Origin: an uncultured Myxococcales bacterium
GTDB lineage: Bacteria; Myxococcota; Myxococcia; Myxococcales; Myxococcaceae
DNA length: 20,582 nt
Assembly: GCA_903911905.1 (NCBI GenBank)
Contig: CAIWFK010000823.1
Location: 1 to 20,582 of the forward strand
Reading direction: 5' to 3'
In this document: in pieces, positions 1 to 20,582 of the stretch
Layout of the letters: each line of letters starts with the position of its first letter
Position numbering within the stretch: the first letter of the stretch is position 1
Made by a program: the position numbers and the translations under genes
Notes under the pieces: generated by a model
The model's database searches: none
Seen by the model: the letters and a program-made list of their open reading frames with translations, nothing else
What the model was told of the DNA's origin: nothing

Positions 1-1086
1 ATTCGCACCCCCATGAACGGGGTGCTGGGCATGACCAGCGTGATGCTGGGGCTAAAGGGGCTGCCGCCCGAGGTGCGCGAAGGGCTGACCACCATTCAGC
101 AGAGCGGCAGCACCTTGATGGCCGTCATCAACGACATTCTCGACTTCTCGAAGATCGAATCGGGCCGCATGGTGCTCGAGCGCGAGCCCATCGACCTGCG
201 CGCCGAGTTCTCGGCGCTCAAGGCGCTGCTCGAAGGCGTGGCGACCGAGCACGACAACCACTTCGTGCTCACCATTTCCGACGAGGTGCCCTCGTACGTC
301 GCGGGTGACCCGGTGCGGCTGCGCCAGGTGGCGCTCAACCTGCTGTCGAACGCGCTCAAGTTCACCACCGTCGGCCGGGTCGAAGCGCGGCTCTTCGTGC
401 GCGAGGGCCAGTTGGTGCTCGAGGTCACCGACAGCGGCATCGGCATGAGCCCGCAGGTCCTCGAGCGGCTCTTCCAGCCCTTCACCCAGGCTGACGCCTC
501 GACGACCCGCCGTTTTGGCGGCACGGGCCTGGGCCTGGCCATCGTGCGGCGCCTGGTCGAGGCCATGAAGGGCTCCATCACCGCGAGCAGCGTCGTCGGT
601 CGGGGCAGCACCTTCACCGTGACCCTGCCGATGGACGTGGTGCCCCCGCCGCCGAACGCCACCCCCACCCCGGTTCGCGCCGCGCGCACGCTGCGGGTGC
701 TGCTGGCCGAAGACAACCCCATCAACCAGCGCGTGGCGCGCGGGCTGCTCGAGCAACTGGGTCACGAGGTGGTGATGGCCGACGACGGCCAGCAGGCGCT
801 CGACCGCCTCACCGCCGCCGACTTCGACATCATCCTCATGGACTGTCACATGCCGGTGATGGACGGCTTCGAGGCCACCCGCATCGTGCGCGAGCGCAAG
901 GGCCGCACGCAGCCCATCATCGCGCTGACCGCCGCCTCGCTGCCCGAAGAGCAGACCCGCTGCCTCGAGGCCGGCATGGACGCGGTGTTGCTCAAGCCCG
1001 TCAGGCGCGAAGACCTGCGGGCCATGCTCGAGCGCTACGCCGGCCCCTCAGGCGTCGCTCCCTTGCCCGCCCAGCGCGCCGAGTGA
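1..1086 (+). CDS. Hybrid sensor histidine kinase, 5'-truncated by the window edge. It carries the tail of HisKA, a HATPase_c domain and a C-terminal receiver domain.
   Basis: The frame is open from nt 1. The first residues 'IRTPMNGVLGM' are the end of an H-box (HELRTPxNxI). ATPase boxes are present (NLLSNALKF, DSGIGM, GGTGLGLAIV). The receiver domain has 'RVLLAEDNPIN', the phospho-Asp context 'IILMDCHMPVMDG' and 'LLKP'. GC3 bias is strong. The stop is TGA at 1084-1086. Confidence 0.9.
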   Translation: MRTPMNGVLGMTSVMLGLKGLPPEVREGLTTIQQSGSTLMAVINDILDFSKIESGRMVLEREPIDLRAEFSALKALLEGVATEHDNHFVLTISDEVPSYVAGDPVRLRQVALNLLSNALKFTTVGRVEARLFVREGQLVLEVTDSGIGMSPQVLERLFQPFTQADASTTRRFGGTGLGLAIVRRLVEAMKGSITASSVVGRGSTFTVTLPMDVVPPPPNATPTPVRAARTLRVLLAEDNPINQRVARGLLEQLGHEVVMADDGQQALDRLTAADFDIILMDCHMPVMDGFEATRIVRERKGRTQPIIALTAASLPEEQTRCLEAGMDAVLLKPVRREDLRAMLERYAGPSGVAPLPAQRAE

Positions 1087-3189
1087 CACCGGCAGTCGTG
1101 CGAGCAGCCGCTCGGCGACGTCGGCCACCGAGCCTCCTCCCAGAATGGCCAGTGGCGACAGGTTCTCGGTCAGCGCGGCGGCCAGGTGCTGGTTGCCCAG
1201 CGACTTCAAGGTGGCGATGAGCTCGGGCGCCAGGGCGCCCATCTGCTTCTGGAAGGCCTCGACGCTGGCCTCGAGGCGGGTTCGCTCGACGGCGGCGAGG
1301 CGGCTCTGCGCTTCGGCCTGCGCGGCGCTGCTGAGGGCGAGCGCCTGGGCCTCGTTCTGCGCGCGGCCGACCACGTCGACCCGCTGGGCCTCGACCGTGG
1401 CCTCCGCCTTCGCCACTACCAGCGTGCGGCGCGCGTGCTCGAGCGCCACCGTGGCCACGAGGGTGGCGCGCTGGGCCTCGGCGATGCCGCGGTTGACCTC
1501 TTCCTTCGCGCGCTCGTTGACCAGGCGCAGGTCTTCCTTGCGGCGGGTGACCTCGCTGGCGATGGCGGTGCGCTGGGCGTCGGTGAGCAGCTTCTGAACG
1601 TCTTCGTCGAGAATGCGTACGTCGAGCACCTCGACGTCGTAGACGAGCATGCCGTTCTCTTCGAACTCGCGCCCCTCGCGTCGGCCGGCGTCGACCTTCT
1701 TGCCCAGGATGGCGCCTCGAATGAGCTCCGTACTGGTGCGGTGCAGCAGCTCGATGGGGCAGGCCCTCACCGCCGCGCGCACGATGGACCCCAGGTGGTC
1801 GCACAGCAGGGCCACGTAGTTCTTCACGTTGAACCACCGCACGTCGGGCTTGCTCTCGTGCGAGCTGAAGCTGACCCGGTACGAGAGCTCGAGCTCGAGT
1901 TCGACGTGGTCGCTGGTGCGCACCGTCACCTGGTCCGAGACCCGGTTGCCGTCGACCAGCAGGAAGCAGGTGGGCAACAGCGCGTCGTCGCGCTTGGGGG
2001 TGCCGGTCGAGAGGGTCAGCACCTCGAGCTCTTCGTCGTGGTCGAGCACCCGCACCTGTGGGCCCTTCACCACTTCGCGGCGGTGCGTGCCGGTGACCAG
2101 CACCGCGTAGCTGGGGGGAATGGTGATGACCGGGGCGCGCTTGCTGTCCACCTTGCCCAGGCCCCACAGCGCGGCCACCTCGGGCGGCACCGGGCGCGAG
2201 AGCAGCTCGACGCGCGTCGGGTCGGGCAAGTAGGTGGTGGGCCCGGCGATGGTCGAGATGACGCCGGTGCCGATGTCTCGCACCGAGATGGCTTCCTTGT
2301 CGGCGAGCGGAATCGCCGCCACTTCGCCGAGCACCTCGAGCTCCTCTGTCGGAAAGACGTAGCCCTCGTGCCCCGAGAGGAACAGCTCTTGCCCGCCCTC
2401 GTACTTGCCCGGTGGCACCTGGTCGCCCGCCTTGGCCTCGAAGCTGCGCAGCACGCGCACGTGCAGGCCCCGCTCGCGCCGCAGCGGAAAGGCGGCGAAG
2501 GCGCGTCGACCCTCGTGGGTGACGAAGTCCTCCCAGGCCTCGGGGAAGACCACGCCGGGGCCTCGCACGAAGCGGCGGCGACCGCGGGGCCCGCGCAGCA
2601 CGCAGTACTGGCCTTCGAGCAGGGTGACGGCGTTGCGCACGAAGGCGCCCTTCTCGTCGGGCAGCACCTCGAGGCCGGTGCGCGGAATCCAGAAGCTGAC
2701 GTCGTGGCCCGAGACGATGCGCTCGGTGCCGATGGGGCCGGCCTCGGGGCCGTCGACCAGGTCGTAGACGCGAATGCGCAGGTATTGGTCTTCGGCCAGC
2801 TCGTGCCCGGCGAGCACCTTGGCCCGCTGCCCCGGCCAGAGCGGGAAGGTCGCAGGGCCCGGCACCACCACGCGGCGGCCGGTGAGCAGCTCGGCCGACG
2901 AATTGCTGCCCTTCACGGGCCTCGCGGCCGCTTCCTTGAGGGGGTTCTCGAGCACCACGTACTGCGCGCTCGAGGCGGTGACGAAGGGGCTGACGCCGCC
3001 GCCGCCGTCGTCGCTGCGCACCGGCGCGAAGCGACCCTCGCGGTACTCGACCAGGCGCTCGGTGTTGGACAGCGAAATCTTGGTCGGGCCGACGTAGAGC
3101 ACGATGTCGCCCTTGGTCAGGTCCTGCACGTAGGCGTACTCGTTGGCGGCTACCAGAATGTCGCGTTCGCGAAGGTCGCGCTCGGCCAT
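1048..3189 (-). CDS. Major vault protein (MVP) homolog: N-terminal MVP repeats, an SPFH/band-7-like shoulder domain and a C-terminal A/E/Q-rich cap-helix region.
   Basis: 713-aa ORF. The N-terminus 'ILVAANEYAYVQDLTKGDIVLYVGPTKISL' aligns with human MVP '[29 protein letters not shown]'. The segment 'EAISVRDIGTGVISTIAGPTTYL' matches MVP '[23 protein letters not shown]'. The segment 'LEVLTLSTGTPKRDDALLPTCFLLVDGNRVSDQVTVRTSDHVELELELSYRVSF' matches MVP '[53 protein letters not shown]'. The C-terminal 'ATLKSLGNQ' matches MVP 'LQSLGLKSTL'. There is a good SD (AGGAG) 8 nt upstream of the ATG at 3189. The 3' end overlaps the convergent kinase by 39 bp. Confidence 0.88.
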   Translation of the reverse strand: MAERDLRERDILVAANEYAYVQDLTKGDIVLYVGPTKISLSNTERLVEYREGRFAPVRSDDGGGGVSPFVTASSAQYVVLENPLKEAAARPVKGSNSSAELLTGRRVVVPGPATFPLWPGQRAKVLAGHELAEDQYLRIRVYDLVDGPEAGPIGTERIVSGHDVSFWIPRTGLEVLPDEKGAFVRNAVTLLEGQYCVLRGPRGRRRFVRGPGVVFPEAWEDFVTHEGRRAFAAFPLRRERGLHVRVLRSFEAKAGDQVPPGKYEGGQELFLSGHEGYVFPTEELEVLGEVAAIPLADKEAISVRDIGTGVISTIAGPTTYLPDPTRVELLSRPVPPEVAALWGLGKVDSKRAPVITIPPSYAVLVTGTHRREVVKGPQVRVLDHDEELEVLTLSTGTPKRDDALLPTCFLLVDGNRVSDQVTVRTSDHVELELELSYRVSFSSHESKPDVRWFNVKNYVALLCDHLGSIVRAAVRACPIELLHRTSTELIRGAILGKKVDAGRREGREFEENGMLVYDVEVLDVRILDEDVQKLLTDAQRTAIASEVTRRKEDLRLVNERAKEEVNRGIAEAQRATLVATVALEHARRTLVVAKAEATVEAQRVDVVGRAQNEAQALALSSAAQAEAQSRLAAVERTRLEASVEAFQKQMGALAPELIATLKSLGNQHLAAALTENLSPLAILGGGSVADVAERLLARLPVSLGALGGQGSDA

Positions 3190-4939: not shown

Positions 4940-5470
4940 TCAGAGTTCGCGGCTCATCAGCAGGCGAAGCTTGCCGCTCTTCTTCGAGACCACGGTGGCG
5001 ACGGTGGTGAAGCCGGCCTTGCGGTAGAAGCTGACCGCGGGAGAATTTGCGGGGTCGACGCGCAGGGCCAGGGTCTTGCGGTTCATGTCGCGGGCGAGCG
5101 TGAGGCCCTGTTCGAGCACCACGGCGCCCATGCCCTTCTGCCGCAGTTCCTGCTTCACGACGATGTTACGCATGTACGCGGCGCCCGGCACCGGGCCGTC
5201 GCGCTCGATGGTGACGTAGCCGACGACCGCGCCGCCGAGCTTGGCCACCGAAATGAAGGGGCGCAGCTTGGTGAGCGCCTCGAGGCTCTCGCCCTGGGCT
5301 TCACCGCGGGCCTTCCATGGCTCTGACGCACTGCGGAGCGTGGCCAGCGCGTTCATGTCTTCGTCGGTGGGCACGGCGAACTTCACCTGCCCCTTGAAGT
5401 CGGCCGGCAACGTCACCGGCGGAAGCGTGGAATTCGCGCCAGTGGAGGTGTCAATCTGCTTGTCGGTCAT
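4940..5470 (-). CDS. GNAT-family N-acetyltransferase.
   Basis: 176 aa. The acetyl-CoA motif region is 'IVVKQELRQKGMGAVVLEQGLTLARD' (Q/RxxGxG/A). The C-terminal 'VSFYRKAGF' is typical of GNAT. SD 'AAGGGA' lies 6-11 nt upstream of the ATG at 5470. Confidence 0.75.
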   Translation of the reverse strand: MTDKQIDTSTGANSTLPPVTLPADFKGQVKFAVPTDEDMNALATLRSASEPWKARGEAQGESLEALTKLRPFISVAKLGGAVVGYVTIERDGPVPGAAYMRNIVVKQELRQKGMGAVVLEQGLTLARDMNRKTLALRVDPANSPAVSFYRKAGFTTVATVVSKKSGKLRLLMSREL

Positions 5471-5684
5471 GGTTCCCTTTCGATGCCCCGCATCTACAGC
5501 TTCGGCTCGGCCGCCCTTGATCCTAACAAACGCATGGGGCGCGCAGGAATTTCAATGGCGTGGATCAAGCGTAGGTGGCGAACCCACAAAGACATCGATG
5601 TCGGTGTCGGGCGCGAGGGCGACTGGTCGAAAGTCTTGAGAAACACTGGGCAGCCGTCGCGTTTGGCCGCACAATCAGGTCACC
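5471..5684. promoter_or_regulatory. Divergent intergenic region, presumed to hold the promoters for the GNAT and MglA-like genes. Its GC content is noticeably lower than the flanking sequence.
   Basis: AT-enriched stretch (e.g. 'tcctaacaaacgcatgg', 'aaagtcttgagaaacactgg'). The only ORF here (5483-5710) has poor codon usage. Confidence 0.3.
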
Positions 5685-6389
5685 GTGCAACTGAACCACG
5701 CCCAGCGTGAGCTGACGGTCAAGATCGTCTACTACGGCCCCGGCCTGTCGGGGAAAACGACCAACCTGCAGATGGTGCATCAGCGCACGGCCAGCGACGT
5801 GCGCGGCCGCCTGCTGACGGTCGAGACCCACGACGATCGGACCCTCTTCTTCGATCTGCTTCCCGTCTTCTTCAGCACCGCCAACGGCTTCAAGGTGAAG
5901 GTCAAGCTGTTCACCGTGCCCGGGCAGGTCATTCACAACGCGACCCGACGCATCGTGCTGCAGGGCGCCGACGCGGTGGCCTTCATCGCCGACAGCCGCC
6001 GCTCGATGGGGCCCGACAACAACGCGTACTGGAAGAACCTGCTCGAGAACATGCGCGAGAACGGGCTCGACCCCGCGCAGGTGCCGGTGGTCATTCAGTA
6101 CAACAAGCGCGATCTGCCCGACGCCAAGACCGACGCCGAGATCGAAGAGACCCGCAAGAAGGGCAAGGAACCGGTGGTCGGCGCCATCGCCATTCGCGGC
6201 GTGGGCGTGCTCGAAACGCTGCACGCGGTACTGCAGGTGGGCTACCGCGCCATCGACGCGCGCGCCGGGCTGACCAAGAACATCGGCCTGACCGAACGCG
6301 AATTCCTGGGGCAGGTCTTCGCCAACATCGACACCACGGGCACCGAGCTCGAAAAGGCGTTTCCGCCGCGCAAGGTGGAAGCGAAATGA
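5685..6389 (+). CDS. MglA-family Ras-like small GTPase paralog with a C-terminal extension of about 40 aa.
   Basis: GTG start. '[22 protein letters not shown]' is near-identical to Myxococcus MglA '[22 protein letters not shown]'. Switch I is '[11 protein letters not shown]' (intrinsic Arg retained). Switch II is 'FTVPGQV' (Gln retained). 'VIQYNKRDL' is the NKxD box. '[13 protein letters not shown]' is the SAK-like box. The protein is 234 aa, versus about 195 aa for canonical MglA. Its stop overlaps the next start (ATGA). Confidence 0.9.
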   Translation: [234 protein letters not shown]

Positions 6390-7864
6390 GGCAGGGCGAG
6401 TCGGTGCTGCAGCGTCGAATCTCGCTCGGCGAGATGCTCGACGGCGAGTCCTTCACCGAAGTGGTGAAGGGCTTCGTCGAGCTCTACCGCGTGGGCATCA
6501 AGGTGTTCGACGACAAGGGCGCGAAGCTCGCCGACATCAAGATCAACAACGGTGACTTCTGTGGCTACGTCTTCAGCTTTCCCGAAGGGCGTCGCCGCTG
6601 TACGGCCACCGTGGGCCGGGTGAAGGACGGCCCGGTCGCCACCACCCACGGTGCGCGGCTGCCGGTGCTCGAGAGCGACCTCGTACCGCAGGCCAGGGGC
6701 ATGGTGACCGTGCCCTGCTTTACCGGGCTGCGGTACCTGATCATGCCCATTCTGTGGGAAGGCGACACCATGGGCCGGGTGGTGTTCGGGCCCTTCACGC
6801 CCGAAGACCTGGTCGACTTCCCGCCGCGCTCGCTGACCGAGGTCACCGACGCCTTCGACGTCGGCAACGCGAAGACCCTGGTCGAGAAGGTGCGGCGCGC
6901 GCCCGAGAGCACCATCGCCCGCATCATGCTGCACTTCGGTCAGTTGATGCAGACCATGCTCTTCGCCGGTCAGAAGATGTTCCTGACCAGCCAGTTGCAC
7001 ATCGAGGCCACGCTCGAACAGAACCGCGAGCTCGAGGAACGCAACCGCAAGCTCGAGGACATGAACACCCGCCTCAAGGAACTCGACCGGCTCAAGAGCG
7101 CGTTCCTGGCCACGGTCAGTCACGAGCTGCGCACGCCGCTGACCAGCATCATCGGCTATTCGGAAATGCTGGCCGAGGGGCTGGCCGGCACGCTCAACGA
7201 CGAGCAGGTCGACTACGTGCGCACCATCATGGAAAAGGGCGAGACGCTGCTCAAGCTGATCAGCAGCATTCTCGACATCTCGCAGATCGAAGCCGGCAAG
7301 GTGCGGCTCAACTTCGAGCCGATGGACGCCATCGAGCTGGTGACCTCGTCGGTGAGCAGCTTGAAGCCGCAGGCGCACAAGAAGGGCGTGGTGCTCGAGG
7401 CCAGGGTGCCCTCGCGAGTCGCCCAGGTGAACGGCGACCGCGATCGCCTTCGCCAGGTCATCGTCAATCTGCTCGCCAACGCGGTGAAGTTCACGCCCAA
7501 GGCCGGTCGGGTCACCGTGACCTTGAGCGAGGTGGGGCACCAGCCCGACCTGAACGCCCAAGGCTACCGCATCATCGTCGAGGACTCGGGCGTGGGCATT
7601 CCCGCCGACCAGTTCGACAAGATCTTCCACAGCTTCTACCAGGTCGACTCGAGCTCGACGCGCGAGTACGGCGGCGCGGGCCTGGGGCTGGCCATCGTCA
7701 AGAGCTTCGTCGAAGGCCACGGCGGCGTGGTGCGGGTGGCCAGTGAAATGGGCCACGGCAGCCGCTTCACGCTGATTCTGCCGGTGGTGCCGTCGTTGCA
7801 GCCGCAGGTGCAGATCACCCCTCCGGTGACCGCGCTGCAGGCACCCGTCGACGACCGCTTCTAG
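6386..7864 (+). CDS. Cytoplasmic sensor histidine kinase: an N-terminal PocR-like sensory domain, a coiled coil, HisKA and HATPase_c. No TM segments and no receiver domain.
   Basis: The N-terminus 'VFDDKGAKLA...DFCGYVFSFPEGRRRC...VPCFTGLRYLIMPILWEGDTMGRVVFGPF' fits the PocR pattern (dxdG...FC...G..rC....ChaGl.d..pI...G..iG.....gp). The coiled coil is 'LEQNRELEERNRKLEDMNTRLKELDRLKSAFLA'. The H-box is 'VSHELRTPLTSIIGYSEML', followed by N, G1, F and G2 boxes. SD 'AAGGTGGAAG' lies upstream. The start overlaps the stop of the MglA-like gene. Confidence 0.88.
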   Translation: MRQGESVLQRRISLGEMLDGESFTEVVKGFVELYRVGIKVFDDKGAKLADIKINNGDFCGYVFSFPEGRRRCTATVGRVKDGPVATTHGARLPVLESDLVPQARGMVTVPCFTGLRYLIMPILWEGDTMGRVVFGPFTPEDLVDFPPRSLTEVTDAFDVGNAKTLVEKVRRAPESTIARIMLHFGQLMQTMLFAGQKMFLTSQLHIEATLEQNRELEERNRKLEDMNTRLKELDRLKSAFLATVSHELRTPLTSIIGYSEMLAEGLAGTLNDEQVDYVRTIMEKGETLLKLISSILDISQIEAGKVRLNFEPMDAIELVTSSVSSLKPQAHKKGVVLEARVPSRVAQVNGDRDRLRQVIVNLLANAVKFTPKAGRVTVTLSEVGHQPDLNAQGYRIIVEDSGVGIPADQFDKIFHSFYQVDSSSTREYGGAGLGLAIVKSFVEGHGGVVRVASEMGHGSRFTLILPVVPSLQPQVQITPPVTALQAPVDDRF

Positions 7865-8801: not shown

Positions 8802-11800
8802 GTGGAGGTTAAGGTCCCACTCGTGTTCGAGCCGTCCGTCCCGTCACCGCCACCCGAAGCTCCCCGACCTGCGCCCGCTTCGACTGCGGGTCGTGGGCTC
8901 GCGTTGCTCGACGAGGTGCGCGAAGCCCAGCGCCACTCGTTGCAGGCGCGTGGCGTGCTGCTGGGTCTGGCGGCGGCCGTCGCGTTGGTGCTGGCCGGCG
9001 CCTTCGTGGCTGGCGCGCTCTCGGTGCCGGTCGGTCGGGTGTTGTTGGTCGCCGGGCCCCTGGTCGGCGGTGCCCTCGCCGGGCTGCTGGGCGTGTGGTT
9101 GGTCTCACGGCGGGTCGGCGACGCCGAGCGCACCGCGCGACTGCTGGCGACCGAGCTGCCCGAGCTCAACCTCGACCTGTTGGCGGCGGTCGAATTGTCG
9201 AAGGCGCTCGGCACGCCCGACGACTTCTCACCCGACCTCGCGCGCGCCTTCCTCGCCGACGTCGACCGTCGTGCCGCCCGGCACCCGGTGGCCACGCTGG
9301 TCGACCCGCGCCCGGTTCGCACCGCCGCGCTCCTCTTCGGCGCCGTGCTGCTGGTGGGCGGTGGCCTGCTGATCTGGCGGGGGCCGGTCGCGCGCCAGGG
9401 CGTGGCGCTGGCCTTCGCCTCGGCCGACGAAGCGGTGCTGGCGCGCTCGCCCATCACCGGCGACTTCGAGCTGACCTACCACTACCCCGCGCACACTGGC
9501 CTCGAGGCGAAGACGGTGGCGGGCACTGGCGACATCGCCGCGCCCGCGGGCACCGAGGTGGTGGTCAAGACCCACGCCGACCGCGACGTCGACGCCGCCG
9601 CGCTCGTCATCAACGGCCAGCGCACGCCGATGGTGGTGACCGGCCGCGCGCTCGACGCGAAGTTCGTGCTCGAGACCTCGGGGCAGTACCACGTGGCCTT
9701 CCTCTCGGGCTCGCGGGTGCGCGCCGAGGGCCCCGACCTGACCATCACCGTCGGGGCCGACCAGGTTCCGCAGGTGCGCATCAGCTCGCCGGCCGACAAC
9801 GTCGAGCTCGACGCCAGCAAGCAACAGGTCGCCATCAACTACGAAGCGAGCGACGACTACGGGCTGACCGCGCTCGACCTGGTCTACCGCGCGTCGGGCG
9901 GTGCCGAGCAGCGCGTTCCGCTCAAGCCCGACGACGGTCGCACCACCCGCGGCAGCTACACGTGGGACGTCTCGGGCCTCTCGCTGCGGCCGGGTCAGAC
10001 GGTCAGCTACTTCCTCGAGGCCACCGACAACGACGCGGTCAAGGGCCCGAAGAAGGGCGTGTCGGGCACGCTGCAGCTCAAGCTCTACAGCGTCGAGGAG
10101 CATCGCCGCGAAGCGCTCAAGAAGACCGAAGCGCTCTGGGAACGACTCATCACCCACGTCGCCGACCGACTCGAGGGTGCCGACCGCGCCGCGCCCACCA
10201 CGCCCACCGCGGCGCTCGAGGGCAAGCCGGTCGACACCCGCGCCCAGCAACTGGGTGAAGACCTGGTGCAATTGGCGAAGGACCTCGACGAGGACCGCGA
10301 CCCGCCCGAAGAGCTCATCGGCGCCCTGCGCAACGTGTCGACCGAGCTGGCGCGCGACCAGTCGACCATCGCCGTCAACCGCCGCCTGCTGTTGCGCATG
10401 GCCGGGAAGGACGGCTCGAAGACCGAGCCCGAGCCGGCTCCCGCGCCCCGCACCGCCGAGGTGGGCCGCCGCCTGGCCGCCGCGCTGGCCCGCGACGCGG
10501 TGCACGGCGAAAAGAACGTGCTGTACCTGGAAGCGCTGCTCGACCGGCAGAAGATGGAGGCCATCAAGTCGCTGGCGAAGGAGCTCAAGGAAGACCGCCG
10601 CGAGCTGTCGAACCTGCTCGAGCAGTACGCGAAGACGAAGGACGAGAAGACCCAGTCGCAGTTGCTGCAGCAGATGGATCAACTCAAGGCCCGCATGCTC
10701 GAGCTGCAGCAGCGCATGGCCGAACTGGCGCGCGGCGTGCGCGACGACTTCATGAACGCCGAGGCCATGCAGCAGATGATGGAAGACGAGAACCTCGGCG
10801 GCTCGCTCGACGAGGTCGAGAAGCTCATTCGCGAAGGCAAGGCCGAAGAGGCCTTGAAGAAGATGCAGGAACTGTCGATGCAGATGGACGACTTCCTCGA
10901 CAAGCTCGACGACGCGGCCGACAAGGCCGACCAGCAGGCCGACCCCGAGCTGGTCGAGAAGTTCTCGAAGTTCCAGGAAGACCTCGAGCAGACCATCGCC
11001 TCACAGGAAGCCCTGAGCGAGAAGACCCGCGCCCTGCGCGACAAGTACCGCGACGCCCAGAAGGAACGCATCGCCAGGGAAGGCGCGCAGCTCAAGCGCG
11101 AGCTGGGGCAGCGGCTCGACGAACTCGACAAGAGCTGGAAGCAGCTCGACGCCGACCGCTACGGCGCGCGCTTCCAGGAGCACCGAGCGCAGGCCCAGCG
11201 CTCGCTCGAGAACACCCGCCAGGCGCTCGAGGCCAACGACTTCGACCTCGCTTCCGAATCGGCCGACCACCTCGAAGAGCAGACCCACCAGATGGCCGAG
11301 CAGGCCGACGAGCAGCGCCGCCTCGACGAGATGTTCCAGAACCCCAGCGACGTGCGCCGCGAATCGAAGCAACTGCGCGACCGGTTGACCCGCGACGCGA
11401 AGAAGGCCGACGAGGTGGCGCGCGCGCTGCGCGACCTCTTCCCCCAGCCGGGGCAGCAGCTGAGCGAGGCCGACCGCCAGCAGATGCAGGACTTGGCCCG
11501 TCAGCAAAAGGGGCTGCAGCAGAAGAGCCAGCAACTGGGCCAGCAGATGGACGAACTGGGCGAGCGCGCCCCCATCTTCGACGAAGACGCCCAGCAGCAG
11601 ATGCAGCAGGCCGGTCAGCGCATGGGCAACGCCCAGGAACGGCTCTCGGGGCGTGACCCCAGCCGCGGCTTCGGCGAGCAGCAGGGCGCGCTGCAGTCGC
11701 TCAAGGGCCTGCAGCAGTCGATGCAGCAGCAGGGCAAGAAGGGCGGCAAGGGCGGCATGCCGTTGCCGATGAAGGGCGCTCGTTCGGGCCACGGCCACCG

Positions 11801-11945
11801 CAACGAGAAGGTCGAGATTCCCGACGCCGACCCGAATGCCGCGCCCCGCGAGTTCCGCAAGGACGTGATGGACGCCATGAAGCAGGGCGCACCCGACCGC
11901 TACCGCGACCAGAACAAGAAGTACTACGAGGAGTTGGTCAAGTGA
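8802..11945 (+). CDS. Large membrane protein (1047 aa) with four parts: a Pro-rich N-terminus, three TM helices, a beta-rich extracytoplasmic region of about 250 aa, and a highly charged, Gln-rich coiled-coil region of about 600 aa ending in a Gly/Lys tail. Function unknown. The architecture is reminiscent of DUF4175-type proteins, but this is from memory and unverified.
   Basis: First start is GTG 8802, immediately after an in-frame TGA. An alternative GTG lies at 8823, downstream of GGAGG at 8804-8808. The TM segments are 'LLGLAAAVALVLAGAFVAGAL', 'VLLVAGPLVGGALAGLLGVWLV' and 'AALLFGAVLLVGGGLLIW'. Long heptad-like, E/K/R/D/Q-rich sequence runs from about aa 430 to 1000 and includes repeated 'QQMQ' units. 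The C-terminus is 'GKKGGKGGMPLPMKG...KKYYEELVK'. Confidence 0.75.
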   Translation: MEVKVPLVFEPSVPSPPPEAPRPAPASTAGRGLALLDEVREAQRHSLQARGVLLGLAAAVALVLAGAFVAGALSVPVGRVLLVAGPLVGGALAGLLGVWLVSRRVGDAERTARLLATELPELNLDLLAAVELSKALGTPDDFSPDLARAFLADVDRRAARHPVATLVDPRPVRTAALLFGAVLLVGGGLLIWRGPVARQGVALAFASADEAVLARSPITGDFELTYHYPAHTGLEAKTVAGTGDIAAPAGTEVVVKTHADRDVDAAALVINGQRTPMVVTGRALDAKFVLETSGQYHVAFLSGSRVRAEGPDLTITVGADQVPQVRISSPADNVELDASKQQVAINYEASDDYGLTALDLVYRASGGAEQRVPLKPDDGRTTRGSYTWDVSGLSLRPGQTVSYFLEATDNDAVKGPKKGVSGTLQLKLYSVEEHRREALKKTEALWERLITHVADRLEGADRAAPTTPTAALEGKPVDTRAQQLGEDLVQLAKDLDEDRDPPEELIGALRNVSTELARDQSTIAVNRRLLLRMAGKDGSKTEPEPAPAPRTAEVGRRLAAALARDAVHGEKNVLYLEALLDRQKMEAIKSLAKELKEDRRELSNLLEQYAKTKDEKTQSQLLQQMDQLKARMLELQQRMAELARGVRDDFMNAEAMQQMMEDENLGGSLDEVEKLIREGKAEEALKKMQELSMQMDDFLDKLDDAADKADQQADPELVEKFSKFQEDLEQTIASQEALSEKTRALRDKYRDAQKERIAREGAQLKRELGQRLDELDKSWKQLDADRYGARFQEHRAQAQRSLENTRQALEANDFDLASESADHLEEQTHQMAEQADEQRRLDEMFQNPSDVRRESKQLRDRLTRDAKKADEVARALRDLFPQPGQQLSEADRQQMQDLARQQKGLQQKSQQLGQQMDELGERAPIFDEDAQQQMQQAGQRMGNAQERLSGRDPSRGFGEQQGALQSLKGLQQSMQQQGKKGGKGGMPLPMKGARSGHGHRNEKVEIPDADPNAAPREFRKDVMDAMKQGAPDRYRDQNKKYYEELVK

Positions 11946-13639
11946 GCGCCCTGCTGCTCGTCGTCGCCGTGCTCGCCGCCGAGCCTGCCCCCGAGGTCAA
12001 GGGTGAGGCCAAGGCCCGAATGCAGAACCTCGAGCAGGCGCTCAACGACTGGGACCTCGAGGGCGCGCGCGTCGAACTGGCCGAACTGGCGAAGCTGGCG
12101 CCGGCCGACTCGGCGCCGCTGGCCTATTTCGAGGGGCGGGTGGCCTTCGAAGAGGGGCGCTACGACGACGCCGTCGAGCGGCTGACCCGCGCCGGCATCA
12201 GCGACAAGACGGGCACCTGGCTCACCCTGGCGCAGCAGACGCGCGACGTGGTCGGCCACCACGAGCGAATCGAGAGCGAGCACTTCGTCTTCCTCTACGC
12301 GAAGGGCTCGAAGGACCAGGCGCTCGCCAACTGGGCGCTCGACGCGCTCGAGCACCAACGCGCCGCGCTCGAGAAGGACCTGGGCTACGTGCCGCCCGGC
12401 AAGATTCGCATCGAATTCGTGGGCAGCGCTGGAGAGCTCTCGAAGGTCTCGACGCTCTCGAAGGAAGCCATTCGCACCACCGGCACCATCGCCATCTGCA
12501 AGTTCAACAAGCTGATGGTCACCAGCCCTCGCGCCGTCATCATGGGCTACGACTGGCTCGACACGGTGGCGCACGAATACACGCACCTGGTCATCTCGAA
12601 GAAGAGCCACAACACCGTGCCCATCTGGATGCACGAGGGCCTGGCCAAGTACCTCGAGTCGCGCTGGCGCGGGCCGTACGGCGGCGCGATGACGCCTTCG
12701 ACCCTGGCGCTGCTGGGCAGCCGGGTGCGGGCCAATACCCTGGTGCCCTTCGAGAAGATGCACCCCTCGATGGCGCTGTTGCCCACCGCCGAAGACGCGG
12801 CCACCGCCTTCGCCGAGGTCTTCTTCGCCATCGAGCTCATTCACCAGCAGGGGCCCGATTCGCTCTCGCGGCTGCTCGACAAGATGGCCAGCGGCGTCAC
12901 CGACCGCGTCGCCGTCGAGGCCGTCACCACCCGCAAGTGGCCGGAGTTCGAAAAGGCGTGGATGGCGCACCTGCGCAAGCAACCCTTCCCCAGAGCGCTC
13001 ATTCCGCGCAGCTCGAACGAGAAGAAGGAGCTGGCCGAGCACCAGGGCGAGCAGGACAAGAAGAAGTCGCACCGCGAGGTGTCGTTCGGTGACTTCAAGG
13101 AAGTCACCGAGGTCGACGCCCGCCGCGACGCGCACCTGGGTGAGCTGTACCGTGAGCGACAGCGCATGGGTGCCGCCGCCGAGGCCTACGCCCGCGCGTG
13201 GAAGGTGGCCGGAGATAAGTACGAATCGGTCAGCAACAAGTACGCGCTGACGCTGCTGGAACTGAAGCGCTTCGACGAAGCCGAGAAGGTGCTCGAGGGC
13301 AGCCTCACCATGCACCCCGGCTCGGCCAGCACCAACGTGCACCTGGGCCGCATTCGCCTGCGCGCCAGGGCGTGGAAGCGCGCGACCCAGGCCTACCTCG
13401 ACGCGCTGGCGGTCAACCCCTTCGACCCCGAGGTCTTCGTCGCGCTCTACGCCGCGGCCTCGGCGTCGGGTGACCCGGCGCTCGCGGCCCGTGCGCTCGC
13501 GGGGGCCAGGCTGCTGCTCAAGCTCGACGACAAGCAGGTTGCCGAAGTGGCGCGTCGCTTCGTGCGCAACGAAGACCTCAGCGACGTCGACCTCTCGACC
13601 CCGGCCGCGACGTCTGCGCCCGCTCCCGACGCCGGCTGA
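11942..13639 (+). CDS. Signal-peptide-bearing TPR-repeat protein with a central HExxH zinc-metallopeptidase domain (peptidase MA-like).
   Basis: GTG start, overlapping the upstream stop (GTGA). SD GAGGAG lies 10 nt upstream. The N-terminal 'MSALLLVVAVLAAEPAP' is signal-like. 'VAHEYTHLV' is the HExxH motif. 'PIWMHEGLAKYLE' is the downstream Glu/ligand motif typical of peptidase-MA domains. TPR-like helices flank it at the N-terminus (LEGARVELAELAKLAP, FEGRVAFEEGRYDDAV) and the C-terminus (AEAYARAWKVAGDKYES...NKYALTLLELKRFDEAEKVL...QAYLDALAVNP). Confidence 0.75.
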   Translation: MSALLLVVAVLAAEPAPEVKGEAKARMQNLEQALNDWDLEGARVELAELAKLAPADSAPLAYFEGRVAFEEGRYDDAVERLTRAGISDKTGTWLTLAQQTRDVVGHHERIESEHFVFLYAKGSKDQALANWALDALEHQRAALEKDLGYVPPGKIRIEFVGSAGELSKVSTLSKEAIRTTGTIAICKFNKLMVTSPRAVIMGYDWLDTVAHEYTHLVISKKSHNTVPIWMHEGLAKYLESRWRGPYGGAMTPSTLALLGSRVRANTLVPFEKMHPSMALLPTAEDAATAFAEVFFAIELIHQQGPDSLSRLLDKMASGVTDRVAVEAVTTRKWPEFEKAWMAHLRKQPFPRALIPRSSNEKKELAEHQGEQDKKKSHREVSFGDFKEVTEVDARRDAHLGELYRERQRMGAAAEAYARAWKVAGDKYESVSNKYALTLLELKRFDEAEKVLEGSLTMHPGSASTNVHLGRIRLRARAWKRATQAYLDALAVNPFDPEVFVALYAAASASGDPALAARALAGARLLLKLDDKQVAEVARRFVRNEDLSDVDLSTPAATSAPAPDAG

Positions 13640-13642
13640 GCG

Positions 13643-15394
13643 TCACTGGGTGCGGGTCGACCACTTCTGCGTCGCGCTGTCGAAGGTGACGATGGTGGTC
13701 TGGTCGGGCAGCACCACCGCGCGGGTACTCGACGAGCTGCCGTCGGCCAGCTTCACGGTGATTTTCAGCGACCCGGCCGGCACCCGGTGATTGACCGGCG
13801 GCTCGCCCCAGTCTTCGCTGCCCACCGCGATGGTGGCGCGGGCCCCGCTGACGTTGATGCGCAGCTTGCCTTCGCCCACCGGAATGGCGGCCTCGACGGG
13901 CGCGGGCGTGCTCGAGGGCGCGTCCTTCTTTTCCGGCACGTCTTTCGGCGGGCGGGGCGGTCTGGGGGTCGTCGGGCGCGGGGCCGGCACTGGCGGCACC
14001 GTCGGCGGCGCTGGCACGGGGGCTGGTGTCGGCGCGACGGGCTCGGCCGCAGGTTCTTGTCGAACGTCGACGTCGGGCACCGCGATTCTTACCGCCGGTC
14101 GAGGTGGTTCGACGGCGGTCGCCACCGGCGTGGGCGGCTCACCAGGCGGCAGCGGGCTGGGCACGCCGGCATCGGTCAGCAACACCACCAGCCCCACGCC
14201 CAGCGCGATGCTGGCCAGGAACGACAGCGCGACCAGCACGGTCTTCGCCGAGGTGCGCCGGGGCGGCACCGGGTCGAGCCGCTCGGTGCGCATGGGGCGA
14301 GGCGGTCGAACCGGGCCCGGCGCGGTGATGACAGGGGCGGGCAGCGGCCGCTCGTTGACCCGCTCGTCGAGCGTCTGGGCCGGAGGAGGCGGCGGGGGCA
14401 GCGGCGCGGGCGCAGGCACCTGCACCGCGGGGAAGATGCTCGAGCGACTGCCTCCGCCCGAGGTGAGCGTGCCCTGGTCGTCGACGTAGCCCAGCAGGCT
14501 CGACTGGCTCAGGCGCACGCGGGCATCGAAGGCGGCCTTCTCGAGCGCCTCGCGCATCTCTCGCGCGCTCTGGTATCGCTGCTCGGGCTTGACCATCAGC
14601 GAGCGGGTCACCACCGCGCTCAGGCCTTCGGGCAGTCCGGGGAAGGCCTGGTCGAGCGACTTCCACTGCCCGCGTACCAGCGCCGCGTGGCGGTCGGCGA
14701 GGTTGGTGAAGTCGTCGAAGGGGGTCGCGCCCGAGGCCAGCTTGTAGAGCGTGACGCCCAACGAGAAGAGGTCGCTGCGACCGTCGAGCCGCTTGCCCAT
14801 GGCCTGCTCGGGCGAGAAATAGCCCGCCTTGCCCTTGGTGACGCCGGGCATGGTGAGGTTGCGGTTGGTGGCGGCCTTGGCAATGCCGAAGTCGATGAGC
14901 TTCAAGGCCCCCGCGCTCGAGAGCAGCAGGTTGTGCGGCGAGACGTCGCGGTGCACCAGGTCGACGGTGCCGCCCTCGACGGTGAGCGCGTGCACGGCCT
15001 CGAGCGCGCCACAGCAGGCCACGCCGATGGCGAAGATGGCCTCGTCCGAGAAGCGCTGTTCCCTGCCTCGCATGATGCGGTTGATGGTGGCGAGCGTCTC
15101 GCCGGCCACCAGTTCCATCACCATGAAGAGCTGCCCGTCGTCGCTCTCACCCACCTCGTAGATGTGCACGATGTTGGGGTGCGAGAGCGTTCAGGCGGTG
15201 CGCGCCTCGTCGAGGAACATCTCGCGGAACTCGCTCGACTCGGAATACTCGGGCCGAATCACCTTCACCGCGACGGGGCGGGTGATGCCTCCGGTGAGGT
15301 CCTGCTCGGCGCGGTACACCTCGGCCATGCCACCCTGCGCGATGAGGCGCGAGATGGTGTAGCGACCGATGCGGGTACCGGCGTCGAGTGACAT
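13643..15394 (-). pseudogene. Membrane Ser/Thr protein kinase with a C-terminal PEGA-like domain, interrupted by an in-frame TGA at 15191-15193. The catalytic loop is degenerate.
   Basis: ORFs 15191-15394 and 13643-15169 are in the same frame, separated by a single TGA: '...FREMFLDEARTA*TLSHPNIVHIYEV...'. The N-lobe has 'IAQGGMAEVYRA' and 'VAVKVIRPE'. The catalytic loop is 'HRDVSPHNLL' (Lys of HRDLKPxN replaced). The DFG and SPE motifs are 'LIDFG' and 'GYFSPE'. The protein continues with a Pro-rich linker, a TM helix 'VLVALSFLASIALGVGLVVLL', a Pro-rich spacer and a PEGA-like beta domain ('GKLRINVSGARATIAVGSEDWG...HRVPAGSLKITVKL'). Confidence 0.7.
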
Positions 15395-17697: not shown

Positions 17698-18375
17698 ATG
17701 GTGCCGTGGTGGATCGCCCTGTTGCGCGAGCGGCAACTCACCTGCGCCATGACGGCACTGCTGGCGCACATGTCCAATGACTTCGCGGCTCGAGCGGCCC
17801 AGTCGAACGAGGTGGTCGACCCGCTGCGGGCCCTTGCGCTCGCCGCCCGCGATGGAGAATCGGCCGCGTTCTCGCGCCTCTACGAGCGCACCCGCGATCA
17901 GGCCTGGCGGGTGCTGTACCGCGTGGTTGGAAATTCGCCCGATCTCGAAGACCTGCTCCAGGAATCGTACATTCAACTGATGCGGGCCCTGCAGTCGTAC
18001 CGGGGAGAGTCGCGGGTCTCGACCTTCCTGCACCGGGTCTGCGTGAACGTGGGGTTGATGCACCTGCGCAGCAAGAAGCGCCGCCGCGAAGAGTTGAGCG
18101 ACGAGGTGCCCGAGACGGCCGCGCCCGAAACGACCGACCCGCACCGCGCCGCGCAAATCAAGCAGGCAGCCGATCTGGTTCAGCGTGCCCTGAGCACCCT
18201 GAGCGAAGAGAAGGCCAGCGTCTTCGTCTACCACGACCTGCTCGGCCTCAAGCCCGAGGAGATTTCCGAGCTGCTCGACTGCCCCGCCAACACCGTGCGC
18301 AGTCGGCTCAACCGGGCGCGCGCCGACTTCACCGACGCCGTCGGTGCGCTGACCCGCGAAGGGAAGGCCCCATGA
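17698..18375 (+). CDS. ECF (group IV) RNA polymerase sigma factor.
   Basis: Region 2 is 'FSRLYERTRDQAWRVLYRVVGNSPDLEDLLQESYIQLMRAL...STFLHRVCVNVGLMHLR'. Region 4 is 'VFVYHDLLGLKPEEISELLDCPANTVRSRLNRARADF'. The start is uncertain: ATG at 17698, 17749 or 17773. The 3' end overlaps the anti-sigma start (ATGA). Confidence 0.85.
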   Translation: MVPWWIALLRERQLTCAMTALLAHMSNDFAARAAQSNEVVDPLRALALAARDGESAAFSRLYERTRDQAWRVLYRVVGNSPDLEDLLQESYIQLMRALQSYRGESRVSTFLHRVCVNVGLMHLRSKKRRREELSDEVPETAAPETTDPHRAAQIKQAADLVQRALSTLSEEKASVFVYHDLLGLKPEEISELLDCPANTVRSRLNRARADFTDAVGALTREGKAP

Positions 18376-19877
18376 GCCACCTCGAACACGAGCACCTCTG
18401 GGCCCACGTGCACGACGGCGCGCCACTCGGCGAAGCCGCCAGGGAGCACCTCGAGGGCTGCTCCGACTGCACCGCCACCCTCGACGACATTCGCGTCGCC
18501 CTCTCGGCGCTCGCCGCGCTTCCGCCCGTGCCCGACCTGCCGCTCGCCGTGGCGCGGCGGGTGGGCGACGCGCTGGCCGAAGAAGCCGACCGCCGCGCTG
18601 CCCGTTCCTTCGCCCCCTGGTGGCGGCGCCTGCTCGAGCCCCGCTTCGCGCTCGCCGCCGTGGCCGCCGTGGCGCTGGTGCTCTGGGCGCTCGCCACGGT
18701 GGTGACGCCGCGCCCGGTGCAGGGGCCCGTGGCCGTGCTGCCGCCCGCACCGCCGGTCGCGCCCGTCGAGCCGCGGGTCGACCCCGCCGTCGCGCCCGCG
18801 CCGCCTCCCCTGCCCGCACCCCAGCCCGTGCGTCACCCGCTGACCGCCAGCGTGGCCAGCGCGTCTCGCGCCTCGGTGGGAAACCAGAGCGCGAAGCGCG
18901 CGCAGCCGCTCGGTGAAGGCAGCGTGCTCGCCACCGCTCCCGGCGGCAGTCTGTGGCTGCGCTTGCCCGACGGCACCCGCGCTGGCTTGACGGGTGCTTC
19001 CCAGGTGACACTCGCCACCCTCGAGCAGGGCACCCTCGCGCTCGAGCTGACTCACGGCAGCCTGGCGATGGTGGTGCCGCACCGCGCCGATCGGCTGCTC
19101 ACCGTGCACGCCGGTGAAGTCGTGGTGAAGGACCTCGGTACCCGTTTCCTGGTCTCGACCGATTCGCCCGGTCGCGTGCTGGTCGCGGTCGAGGAAGGCG
19201 AAGTCGAAGTCACCACGCCCGTCGGCTCCCAGACGCTCAAGGCCGGCCATGCCGTGCGCTGGGCCAACGGCAAGGTCGACCCCTTGACCTGGGAAAGCAC
19301 GCCCGCCGCACCGACCTCGACGCCCACGCCGGCCTCGCGACTGCACGACGACGAGAGCGACGAGGCCGACGTGTTGCCCGACGCGCAGCAGCTCGAAGTG
19401 ACCCCCGCACCGGCCCCTGAGCCGGAACCAGCCACCACCGCTCCGGTGCCGCACACTGCTTCGAGCGAAGAGGAATGGGCCCAGCTCCCGCCGCAGGGCC
19501 GCGAGCCTGCGCCAGGCACCGTCTCGCCTGGCCCGCCGCGCCCGGTTCCTGCGCCGACCCCGCGCGTGAACGAGACGGGCTTCAGCTTGCGCCTGCTCGA
19601 GAAGAAGCTGCTCGAGGTGCAGAAGGGGCTGCCGTTCGTGGGCGTGGCCGCCATTCGCGAAGGTCAGGTGCGCACCATCACCCATCTGGCCGATGCGGGT
19701 GACTGTGGCGCGGCGCTCTCGGCGGCGGACCAGTGGCTGGCCTCGGTGCCCACCGAGAACCGCAACGAGCTGCGCTGGCGGCGCGCGGTGCTGATGCAGA
19801 AGATGCGGTGCCTCAATCGCCTGGGCCGGGTGACCGAAGCGAGCGCGGTGAAGGCCGAACTCGAGGTCGGGCCGTGA
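18372..19877 (+). CDS. Membrane anti-sigma factor: an N-terminal zinc-binding anti-sigma (ZAS-type) motif, one TM helix, a periplasmic FecR-like domain, a Pro-rich linker and a C-terminal helical domain.
   Basis: 'HLEGCSDC' is the H-x3-C-x2-C motif. The TM helix is 'FALAAVAAVALVLWALATVV'. The FecR-like beta region is 'LWLRLPDGTRAGLTGASQVTLATLEQGTLALELTHGSLAMVV...GEVVVKDLGTRFLVST...GEVEVTTPVGSQTLKAGHAVRW'. The gene is translationally coupled to the sigma gene. Confidence 0.8.
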   Translation: MSHLEHEHLWAHVHDGAPLGEAAREHLEGCSDCTATLDDIRVALSALAALPPVPDLPLAVARRVGDALAEEADRRAARSFAPWWRRLLEPRFALAAVAAVALVLWALATVVTPRPVQGPVAVLPPAPPVAPVEPRVDPAVAPAPPPLPAPQPVRHPLTASVASASRASVGNQSAKRAQPLGEGSVLATAPGGSLWLRLPDGTRAGLTGASQVTLATLEQGTLALELTHGSLAMVVPHRADRLLTVHAGEVVVKDLGTRFLVSTDSPGRVLVAVEEGEVEVTTPVGSQTLKAGHAVRWANGKVDPLTWESTPAAPTSTPTPASRLHDDESDEADVLPDAQQLEVTPAPAPEPEPATTAPVPHTASSEEEWAQLPPQGREPAPGTVSPGPPRPVPAPTPRVNETGFSLRLLEKKLLEVQKGLPFVGVAAIREGQVRTITHLADAGDCGAALSAADQWLASVPTENRNELRWRRAVLMQKMRCLNRLGRVTEASAVKAELEVGP

Positions 19878-19883
19878 CCGTCG

Positions 19884-20360
19884 CTACTTGATGCGCGAGA
19901 GCACCGCGTCGAAGAGCGCCATCTCGAGCCGCTCGGCGTTGGCGTCGCTGATGGTGTCGATGGAACACGAGATGCGCGTGTTGCCCTGCTGCTTGAGCGC
20001 GGTGATGACCTTGCCACGCCCCGTCACCGGGTCCTCGCCGCGCTTCAAGACGAACGAGAAGGCCAGGGGGTCGCCTTCCTTCATCGACGTGGGAACGATG
20101 GTCGAGAAGCCCGAGCGCGAGATGTCCTTGGTCAGGCCCTGGTAGAGGTTGTTGATTTCCACGGTGTAGACCTGCGCCACGCGGAAGAACCTCCGCGCGT
20201 TCTGCCCTTCGGGCACGGTCAGCCCCTGCGAGGAGACCAGCGAGCGCGCCAGCTCTTCGCGCATCGACAGGTAGCGACGGGTCTCGCCTTCGCTGAGCCG
20301 GCCGGCGCGCATCTTCTCGTGCTGCTCACGAAAGCCCGAAAGCCACTGCCCTGGGTCCAT
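19884..20360 (-). CDS. PilZ-domain (c-di-GMP-binding) protein.
   Basis: Trimmed to 'MDPGQWLSGFREQHEK...' (158 aa). SD GGAGAGG lies 9-15 nt upstream. The PilZ motifs are 'RRFFR' (RxxxR) and 'DISRSGFS' (D/NxSxxG), at the correct spacing. The ORF upstream extension (MGVALRTPRGPRPMRLRARP...) is Arg/Pro-rich junk. Confidence 0.75.
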   Translation of the reverse strand: MDPGQWLSGFREQHEKMRAGRLSEGETRRYLSMREELARSLVSSQGLTVPEGQNARRFFRVAQVYTVEINNLYQGLTKDISRSGFSTIVPTSMKEGDPLAFSFVLKRGEDPVTGRGKVITALKQQGNTRISCSIDTISDANAERLEMALFDAVLSRIK

Positions 20361-20476
20361 GTCGGCAGCCTCTCCGGGTTCTCGTGGTGAGTCAATTTGC
20401 CACGTTGGAAAATTACACTTCCGACGAAACGGGCGCGCCCGAAGCCGCATTGGTCGCGGGCCCCGAGGAGTGCGAA

Positions 20477-20582
20477 GAGCCACGCCCATGCCCTTCCGGC
20501 TGATGCCGCCCGCGCTGCGCTTTGCTCCCGACGAGCTGTACCGGGTGCCGACCGAAGACGGCAGCGCGGTGGCGATGGGGCG
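20477..20582 (+). CDS. 5' end of an unidentified gene (MPFRLMPPALRFAPDELYRVPTEDGSAVAMG...) running off the window.
   Basis: An ATG follows an AT-richer promoter-like stretch, and the frame is open to the window end with good GC3. Too short to classify. Confidence 0.35.

Follow-up and report, generated by a model that had tools for sequence, protein, structure and literature searches.

The stretch of DNA analysed here (20,582 nt of contig CAIWFK010000823.1, from an uncultured member of the Myxococcales; referred to as the window throughout) carries a gene for a small GTPase of the MglA family, directly followed by a gene for a soluble histidine kinase with a PocR-like sensor domain. According to the listing and translation of open reading frames (ORFs), the GTPase gene lies at window positions 5685-6389(+) and encodes 234 aa from a GTG codon, the sole candidate start that retains the P-loop, and the kinase gene lies at 6386-7864(+) and encodes 492 aa from an ATG codon. 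This ATG overlaps the TGA stop codon of the GTPase gene by 4 nt (6386-6389(+), in the context gcgaaATGAgg), an ATGA overlap from which translational coupling of the two genes is predicted. The original prediction for this locus had proposed such a coupled pair of an MglA paralogue and a soluble PocR kinase, and both the overlap and the domains assigned by Pfam bear this out.

Against the MglA chains of Myxococcus xanthus and Thermus thermophilus in the PDB, the GTPase aligned over aa 3-185 with E values of 6e-51 to 6e-49; Pfam found weak similarity to Arf and Roc. More than 8000 homologues were found, the top 120 of which are 82-97% identical. The identity to M. xanthus MglA is 86/194 (44%). 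Canonical MglA proteins encoded next to mglB in metagenome-assembled genomes (MAGs) of Myxococcaceae share 88-91% of their residues with M. xanthus MglA and 44-46% with the GTPase of the window. With 44% identity, as against 88-91% for true orthologues, the protein is a distinct paralogue and not the very close relative of MglA that it had been taken for, and in a neighbour-joining tree it is placed in a clade of its own, separate from canonical MglA. A HMMER search of the sequence library yielded 5979 representatives of MglA-like clusters, and the nearest of these (P0121-P0124, P0130, P0131, P0159, P0160) share the clade with the window GTPase. They are 228-268 aa in length, with 292 aa for P0122, though the members of its cluster have 236 aa. 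Most of P0132-P0270 are 300-800 aa long and combine an N-terminal MglA domain with long C-terminal regions that are Pro/Ala-rich or unassigned, and one of them (P0238) carries a CHAT protease domain.

Most of the nucleotide-binding motifs expected by the original prediction are intact. The P-loop (G1) GPGLSGKT at aa 18-25 (5736-5759(+)) is conserved in the family, and reads GPALSGKT in the group L054-L057. Switch I, DDRTLFFD (5832-5855(+)), is conserved among the aligned family members and includes the intrinsic Arg52, which corresponds to Arg53 of M. xanthus MglA in the alignment. The G3/switch II motif TVPGQ (5913-5927(+)) contains Thr77 of the TxxG signature described for MglA (PMC3000849) and the catalytic Gln81, and G4 is NKRD at aa 140-143 (6102-6113(+)). 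The exception is the SAK box, which was also predicted but is absent in literal form: the G5 region is AIAIRG, resembling AVAPTG of MglA. The similarity over the whole G domain, TxxG with Gln and intrinsic Arg, and the [NT]KxD motif are those of MglA Group 1. The protein departs from canonical MglA in its length (234 aa versus approximately 195 aa), its identity (44% versus at least 80%) and the lack of an adjacent mglB.

The C-terminal extension, estimated previously at about 40 aa, has approximately 42 aa and is not of low complexity. It contains a motif at aa 201-212 (6285-6320(+)), helical by prediction, that is present across the clade and absent from canonical MglA. The consensus G-L-[ST]-E-x-x-F-L-x-x-[IV]-F is kept in members with identities down to 49-60%. 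Lysines 181 and 185 in helix alpha5 of MglA contact the acidic helix at the C-terminus of MglB (PMC6785124). In the alignment these positions are His and Gln in the window GTPase, which suggests a changed regulatory surface.

The kinase consists of the PocR-like sensor, a signalling helix, a HisKA domain for dimerization and histidine phosphotransfer (DHp) and a HATPase_c domain for catalysis and ATP binding (CA), with Pfam E values of 6e-18 for PocR, 2e-21 for HisKA and 6e-31 for HATPase_c. The kinase core matches HK853-type structures in the PDB with E values of 1e-47 or better. No transmembrane segment is detected (maximum Kyte-Doolittle mean over 19 residues, 1.4). The H-box SHELRTPL (7118-7141(+)) contains the phospho-acceptor His246, and is kept in all aligned partner kinases except those of L061 and L062, discussed below. 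The CA domain (7433-7786(+)) has the N box NLLANAVKFT, the G1 box DSGVGI, the F box FHSFYQ and the G2 box GGAGLGL, so that all boxes of a class I (HisKA) kinase are intact.

The PocR-like domain (PF10114) covers aa 16-193 (6431-6964(+)) and scores 65.5 bits, compared to a Pfam gathering cut-off of 23.9. The PocR domain is under constraint, with a mean identity of 72% as against 88% (G domain) and 92% (DHp domain). Three cysteines (Cys59, Cys72 and Cys111) are conserved, in the sequences FCGY, RRRC and VPCFTG (kinase aa 58-72 and 109-114; 6557-6601 and 6710-6727). Cys59 and Cys72, on neighbouring helices by prediction, are kept as a pair except in P0305, where other residues stand in place of both; this hints at a disulfide or a metal site.

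Conservation and surroundings of the pair

A genome scan that covered one genome per GTDB species and requires exact 8-residue matches yielded 56 loci, all in MAGs of Myxococcota. A homologue of the kinase gene directly follows the GTPase gene in all of the 55 loci with downstream sequence, at identities of at least 60% for the GTPase and at least 45% for the kinase. At the DNA level, an in-frame ATG, GTG or TTG of the kinase gene overlaps the GTPase stop codon in 55/55 loci; the overlap has the form NTGA in most, and in three it is a 1-nt overlap (TAATG or TGATG). This arrangement is far beyond chance.

The pairing extends to six more divergent lineages, at GTPase identities down to 49% and kinase identities of approximately 30%. 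Each member of the GTPase clade with available context is directly followed by a PocR-HisKA-HATPase_c kinase gene: P0131 (49% GTPase identity, locus GC 58%), P0123 (55%, locus GC 73%), P0412 from the cluster of P0124 (51%), L072 (57%) and JGI 3300071325, in which a 248-aa ORF is taken as the GTPase from its context. A 4-nt overlap is found in three divergent loci (L072, JGI 3300071325 and JGI 3300059473). The flanks of the divergent members are unrelated, with genes for Lon protease, the dcw cluster, a P-type ATPase or Hsp70, and no member of the clade among those examined is without the kinase gene. The pair has been co-inherited across deeply diverged lineages of Myxococcota despite the turnover of its flanks. 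The question raised by the original prediction, whether the pairing is specific to this strain, is therefore answered by the 55/55 loci, the divergent lineages and one single-chain fusion described below. Neither of the two findings that it had named as speaking against it was made, as no MglB gene lies upstream at the locus and the pairing is widely conserved.

In two loci, L061 (6668-8044) and L062 (2376-3752), the kinase that partners P0131 has ISDQVKKPL in place of SHELRTPL, with a His to Asp replacement at the phospho-acceptor position, and keeps the N, G1, F and G2 boxes. Two independent samples yielded this sequence. This kinase may be a pseudokinase that retains its coupled GTPase gene. 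Retention of the pair after loss of the phospho-acceptor speaks against a purely one-way model and implies that the kinase protein must also have a role independent of autophosphorylation at this position, for instance in regulation or scaffolding of the GTPase.

No gene for a Robl_LC7 (MglB) protein was found in the 20.6-kb window, either by Pfam on the long ORFs or by tblastn with M. xanthus MglB (a query identical to PDB 6h5b_B), and tblastn gave no mglB match in the fetched loci. As predicted, the kinase also lacks an adjacent response regulator gene: the sole receiver domain in the window is 4.6 kb away, in a truncated hybrid kinase (13-1086(+), HisKA-HATPase_c-REC) that is cut by the window edge. 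Targeted tblastn found no conserved receiver gene near the pair in the other loci, with sporadic receiver matches in L049, L042, L051 and L023, and this fits an orphan kinase. The match in L049 (7294-7632) is a CheY-like receiver domain encoded directly 3' of the PocR kinase gene in this one MAG, and a candidate for the family's cognate response regulator.

Upstream of the pair and divergent from it, a gene at 4940-5470(-) encodes a GNAT acetyltransferase (Pfam Acetyltransf_1, E 1e-13). A divergent GNAT gene is present at this place in 50/50 paired loci with a GTPase identity of at least 72%. The intergenic region of 214 bp between the GNAT and GTPase genes (5471-5684) presumably holds the promoter of a two-gene operon. 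No sigma-70 consensus promoter was matched within it, and no Rfam families, regulatory RNAs or tRNAs were detected in the window. Conservation of the region is patchy among 21 loci, and the start context GTGCAACTG is conserved. Downstream, a gene of the YebC family converges on the kinase gene with 1 base between the stop codons, which limits the operon to the GTPase and kinase genes. These neighbourhoods were compared by targeted tblastn, as all-against-all clustering of ORFs was dropped because of spurious ORFs at high GC.

In another set of loci (L041, L042, L046, L047, L051, L052, L060-L064 and L072), outside the subclade of the window, thiL lies directly beside the kinase gene. It scores above the TIGR01379 equivalog cut-off for the housekeeping thiamine-phosphate kinase. 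We therefore rejected it as a part of the module and used it as a synteny anchor only; its adjacency suggests the ancestral chromosomal position of the pair.

The wider window is rich in signalling genes, including one for a Ser/Thr protein kinase at 13643-15169(-). Beyond the GNAT gene lie a GH25 lysozyme-like gene and then a gene at 1048-3189(-) for a 713-aa homologue of the eukaryotic major vault protein, with MVP_shoulder (E 4e-29) and Vault repeat domains. On the other side, the gene for a 1047-aa DUF4175 protein (8802-11945(+)) overlaps a peptidase-MA/TPR gene (11942-13639(+)) by 4 nt, and this gene pair is also found 3' of the kinase gene in L005 and L031. An extracytoplasmic function (ECF) sigma factor gene (17698-18375(+)) likewise has a 4-nt overlap with a FecR-domain gene (18372-19877(+)), the product of which is probably the anti-sigma factor of the adjoining ECF sigma factor, and a PilZ-domain gene lies at 19884-20489(-).

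Single-chain relatives and the fold of the PocR domain

One protein of the library, P0126, unites both partners in a single chain of 665 aa, in the order G domain, tail motif, linker, PocR-like domain and kinase core, and is encoded on a contig with a GC content of 38.5%. Its G domain is 49% identical to the window GTPase and falls within the same neighbour-joining clade, and its tail motif is GLSTDEFIEAIF. Two further candidates for fusions of this type, P0271 and P0272, are probable artefacts: one is a chimera assembled from reads, and the other stems from a 2x long-read contig whose upstream ORF is split.

With P0126 as the query, a further search recovered more than 80 clusters of proteins of 690-760 aa that consist of an MglA-like domain, GAF, HisKA and HATPase_c. 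These MglA-GAF-kinase fusions (P0273-P0388, e.g. P0281, P0312 and P0355) are mainly from MAGs of Acidobacteriota, some of them on megabase contigs, and one (P0374) has an added receiver domain. No account of this architecture was found in the literature that could be searched. An N-terminal MglA-like G domain on a sensor kinase of the GAF class is a recurrent natural design. The fusions share with the pair of the window the kinase subfamily and the succession of a G domain, a GAF-class sensor and a kinase core. They differ in being fused rather than split, in a sensor that scores as GAF and not as PocR, and in G domains that form a separate clade without the GL[ST]ExxFL tail motif.

In an AlphaFold2 model of P0126 (mean predicted local distance difference test, pLDDT, 85; predicted template modelling score, pTM, 0.49) the individual domains are confident. 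The tail is modelled as a helix (residues 205-216) that is part of the G-domain module (pLDDT approximately 94 over residues 201-210); behind it, residues 219-235 form a disordered linker.

In a structure comparison, the PocR domain matches Roadblock/LC7 proteins with scores of 11.0 for LAMTOR2, 10.6 for the C-terminal domain of RagA, 10.5 for p14, 10.5 for M. xanthus MglB (root-mean-square deviation 2.4 A over 102 residues), 10.0 for T. thermophilus MglB, 9.5 for MglC and 9.1 for CvnB5. Sensor domains of the IclR, GAF and PAS types reach the same level in this comparison. Foldseek with the PocR domain gave weak matches, with the GAF domain of CodY ranked first and MglB 41st. At the level of sequence, homology of PocR to MglB can be rejected (hhalign of the PocR profile against the MglB profile gave a probability of 0.2%, and there was no hit to PF03259). 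The PocR domain can thus safely be said to belong to the GAF/IclR/PAS/Roadblock fold class, and the fold and profile results permit, as far as they go, that it stands in for MglB.

Relation to SofG and to other GTPase systems

Cultured Myxococcaceae are listed with three Group 1 MglA proteins per genome (Wuichet and Sogaard-Andersen, 2014; PMC4316618). The first type is an MglA of 195 aa encoded with MglB, and the third a protein of approximately 370 aa linked to a gene with a PATAN domain (PMC4316618). The second type is an orphan of 237-241 aa (e.g. STAU_1215, LILAB_12945 and COCOR_07291), or 230 aa in Anaeromyxobacter (PMC4316618, Table S2), and includes M. xanthus SofG (MXAN_6703) with 239 aa (PMC4316618). 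SofG also falls in a class defined earlier as Group II MglA2, whose members have 225-327 aa, are extended at the C-terminus and lack an MglB partner (Fremgen et al., 2010; PMC3000849, Table 2). The gene adjoining sofG, MXAN_6704, is described as GNAT (PMC4048283), a neighbour that matches the GNAT gene of the window (4940-5470(-)) and serves as a synteny marker. In view of its size, its orphan status, the breadth of the clade across Myxococcota and the GNAT neighbour, we consider it fairly probable that the window GTPase is a SofG-type paralogue.

The comparison with SofG was made by size, features and locus descriptions. On these grounds both are orphan MglA paralogues (approximately 239 aa versus 234 aa here, approximately 44% identical to MglA) that keep the intrinsic Arg and Gln, carry a C-terminal extension, lack an adjacent mglB and have a GNAT neighbour. 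The M. xanthus locus differs in its PilT paralogues, MXAN_6705/6706 (PMC13584747), which are absent from the fetched flanks of the loci studied here, and the PocR kinase is an added element here. SofG acts in the BacP-dependent polar placement of PilB and PilT, and its known partners are BacP, PilB and PilT, with no kinase among them (PMC4085708). The neighbourhoods of Group 1 are said to 'vary widely', with no kinase partner named (PMC4316618). In the searchable literature we found no paper that links SofG or MglA to a PocR or histidine kinase partner, and of the sofG neighbours only MXAN_6704 and MXAN_6705/6706 were found described; specialists who work on sofG may already be aware of the gene beside it. 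As the GTPase most probably belongs to the named SofG/'MglA2' class, it is not itself new, and the new element is its invariant kinase partner.

MglB was found not to aid SofG, for which no GTPase-activating protein (GAP) had been identified (Wuichet and Sogaard-Andersen, 2014; PMC4316618), whereas a later report states that MglB stimulates SofG in trans (PMC13408092). The earlier claim that the GTPase has no MglB GAP consequently holds for the locus, by Pfam and tblastn, and does not carry over to MglB acting from elsewhere. Four MAG-derived MglB proteins, found in a search with M. xanthus MglB, are all encoded next to a 195-aa mglA, and none of these four MAGs also yielded the pair.

The pair can be compared to several known systems. 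With the MglA-MglB module of M. xanthus and T. thermophilus it shares the G-domain family, with P-loop, intrinsic Arg, TxxGQ and NKxD, and a partner domain in the fold class that includes Roadblock domains. It differs in having no Roadblock gene at the locus and a histidine kinase as partner, and in the non-conserved alpha5 lysines and the extra helical tail of the GTPase. The actinobacterial conservons (the kinase CvnA, the Roadblock protein CvnB, CvnC and the GTPase CvnD; mfp operon) similarly lock an MglA-family GTPase genetically to a protein of the histidine kinase type, in an operon without a response regulator. In contrast to the pair, conservons have four genes, including CvnB and CvnC, which have no counterpart here. 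Their kinase is membrane-bound, with HAMP and a C-terminal LPxR motif, rather than soluble with PocR, and CvnD belongs to Group 2 and another phylum, whereas the window GTPase is of Group 1 (NKxD, intrinsic Arg, Gln). Likewise, the Group 1 Rup neighbourhoods (Wuichet and Sogaard-Andersen, 2014) and Roco proteins link or fuse a small GTPase to a signalling output enzyme (histidine kinase, GGDEF/EAL enzyme or protein kinase). Rup is a different GTPase family that lacks the catalytic Gln and is accompanied by two further conserved proteins, and Roco proteins have a COR domain and Ser/Thr kinases.

Proposed mechanism and alternatives

The best explanation of these data is a conserved two-gene operon of an MglA paralogue, probably of the SofG type, and a dedicated cytoplasmic histidine kinase. 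With moderate confidence, we further propose that the two products act as a reciprocal signalling complex, in which the GTPase serves mainly as input. GTPase and kinase would form a complex in roughly 1:1 amounts, with the GTPase docked on the dimeric N-terminal PocR domain; this docking site is suggested by the fold class, which PocR shares with GAF domains and with the Roadblock domains that serve as platforms for GTPases. The GTP/GDP state of the GTPase would gate kinase versus phosphatase activity, and a role of the GTPase as an input module is favoured by the fusions, in which the G domain precedes the sensor. PocR might provide a second input, either a small molecule or a redox state sensed by Cys59 and Cys72, and could act back on the hydrolysis or exchange of the nucleotide. 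Output would pass through a response regulator encoded elsewhere. If the assignment to SofG is right, the pathway would feed into the polar placement of the type IV pilus ATPases.

Several points weigh against this proposal. Physical interaction of the two proteins is proposed on the basis of genomic context and fusions. P0126 is one sequence from one 6.5-kb contig and, with two artefactual candidates beside it, fusions of the PocR type are supportive but thin evidence; with a pTM of 0.49 and a disordered linker, its model supports no docking pose. Orthology with SofG is derived from size, orphan status and one neighbour gene, and PilT-like genes are absent from the fetched flanks (mostly approximately 6 kb) of all loci. 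No cultured genome is among the matches of the scan, which demands exact 8-residue matches. Finally, the His to Asp replacement in L061 and L062 argues that phosphosignalling from GTPase to kinase does not account for everything.

In a rather unlikely alternative, output comes from the GTPase, and the kinase protein, with its ligand- or redox-sensing PocR domain, is its GAP, guanine nucleotide exchange factor (GEF) or scaffold, His-Asp chemistry being secondary or dispensable. PocR would then take the place of the MglB Roadblock dimer for MglA, or of CvnA/CvnB for CvnD. Such a role would be in line with the maintenance of the coupled pair in L061/L062 despite the lost phospho-acceptor, with the absence of mglB from all fetched loci, with the replacement of the MglB-binding lysines (Lys181, Lys185) by His and Gln, and with the proposal that the conservon GTPase is an output (Wuichet and Sogaard-Andersen, 2014; PMC4316618). 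However, in all other aligned lineages the catalytic boxes of the kinase are complete, with identities of 80-92%, which indicates that phosphotransfer is under selection, and the G domain of the fusions is N-terminal, in the position that inputs take in kinases. Moreover, the fold match is not specific for Roadblock and PocR has no sequence homology to MglB, and as MglB is reported to stimulate SofG in trans (PMC13408092), a second GAP is not required.

A more far-reaching reading, which we regard as speculative and on the whole unlikely, would make the PocR/GAF-class domain a built-in equivalent of MglB for SofG-type GTPases, acting as a dimeric platform for the switch face. The pair and its single-chain versions in other phyla would then represent a minimal 'G-protein-gated histidine kinase', in which the nucleotide state of a Ras-like protein is turned directly into His-Asp phosphotransfer that controls type IV pilus polarity. 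In cis, the conserved helix of the tail would fill the allosteric pocket in which MglA receives the C-terminal helix of MglB.

It is improbable that the genes are merely co-expressed, the overlap being an old, vertically inherited operon architecture and the two proteins serving the same process (e.g. pilus or polarity) via separate partners without direct contact. Vertical inheritance, as seen in the ancestral position beside thiL in many lineages, does explain part of the conservation, the pTM of the fusion model gives docking no support, and the partners known for SofG are BacP, PilB and PilT (PMC4085708). Nevertheless, the pair is maintained with its overlap through a complete turnover of the flanks (GNAT, Lon, dcw cluster, P-type ATPase), no examined clade member is without the kinase, and the recurrent single-chain fusions of MglA-like domains and kinases argue for physical coupling. 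That the GTPase is instead the diverged main MglA of the organism would agree with the lack of a canonical mglBA locus tied to any of the same MAGs, but is highly improbable given 44-46% identity to canonical MglA versus 80-91% among orthologues of Myxococcota and Geobacter (PMC3000849, Table 2), the separate clade in the neighbour-joining tree, and the presence of both types in cultured relatives (PMC4316618, Table S2).

Whereas the GTPase class is already catalogued and partly characterized, the invariant, translationally coupled PocR kinase and the related single-chain GTPase-kinase proteins are new. Compared with the conservons, the pair is a simpler version, with two genes, without a separate Roadblock protein, and in another phylum and another MglA group. 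To our knowledge, motility polarity in Myxococcus is organized by just two known small GTPases, one of which is SofG. A kinase that is co-translated throughout the phylum with a GTPase of the SofG type, and that occurs elsewhere in one chain with related G domains, provides a concrete candidate partner. It would also show Ras-like GTPases joined to two-component signalling outside the conservons of actinobacteria, in a simpler design of two proteins or one.

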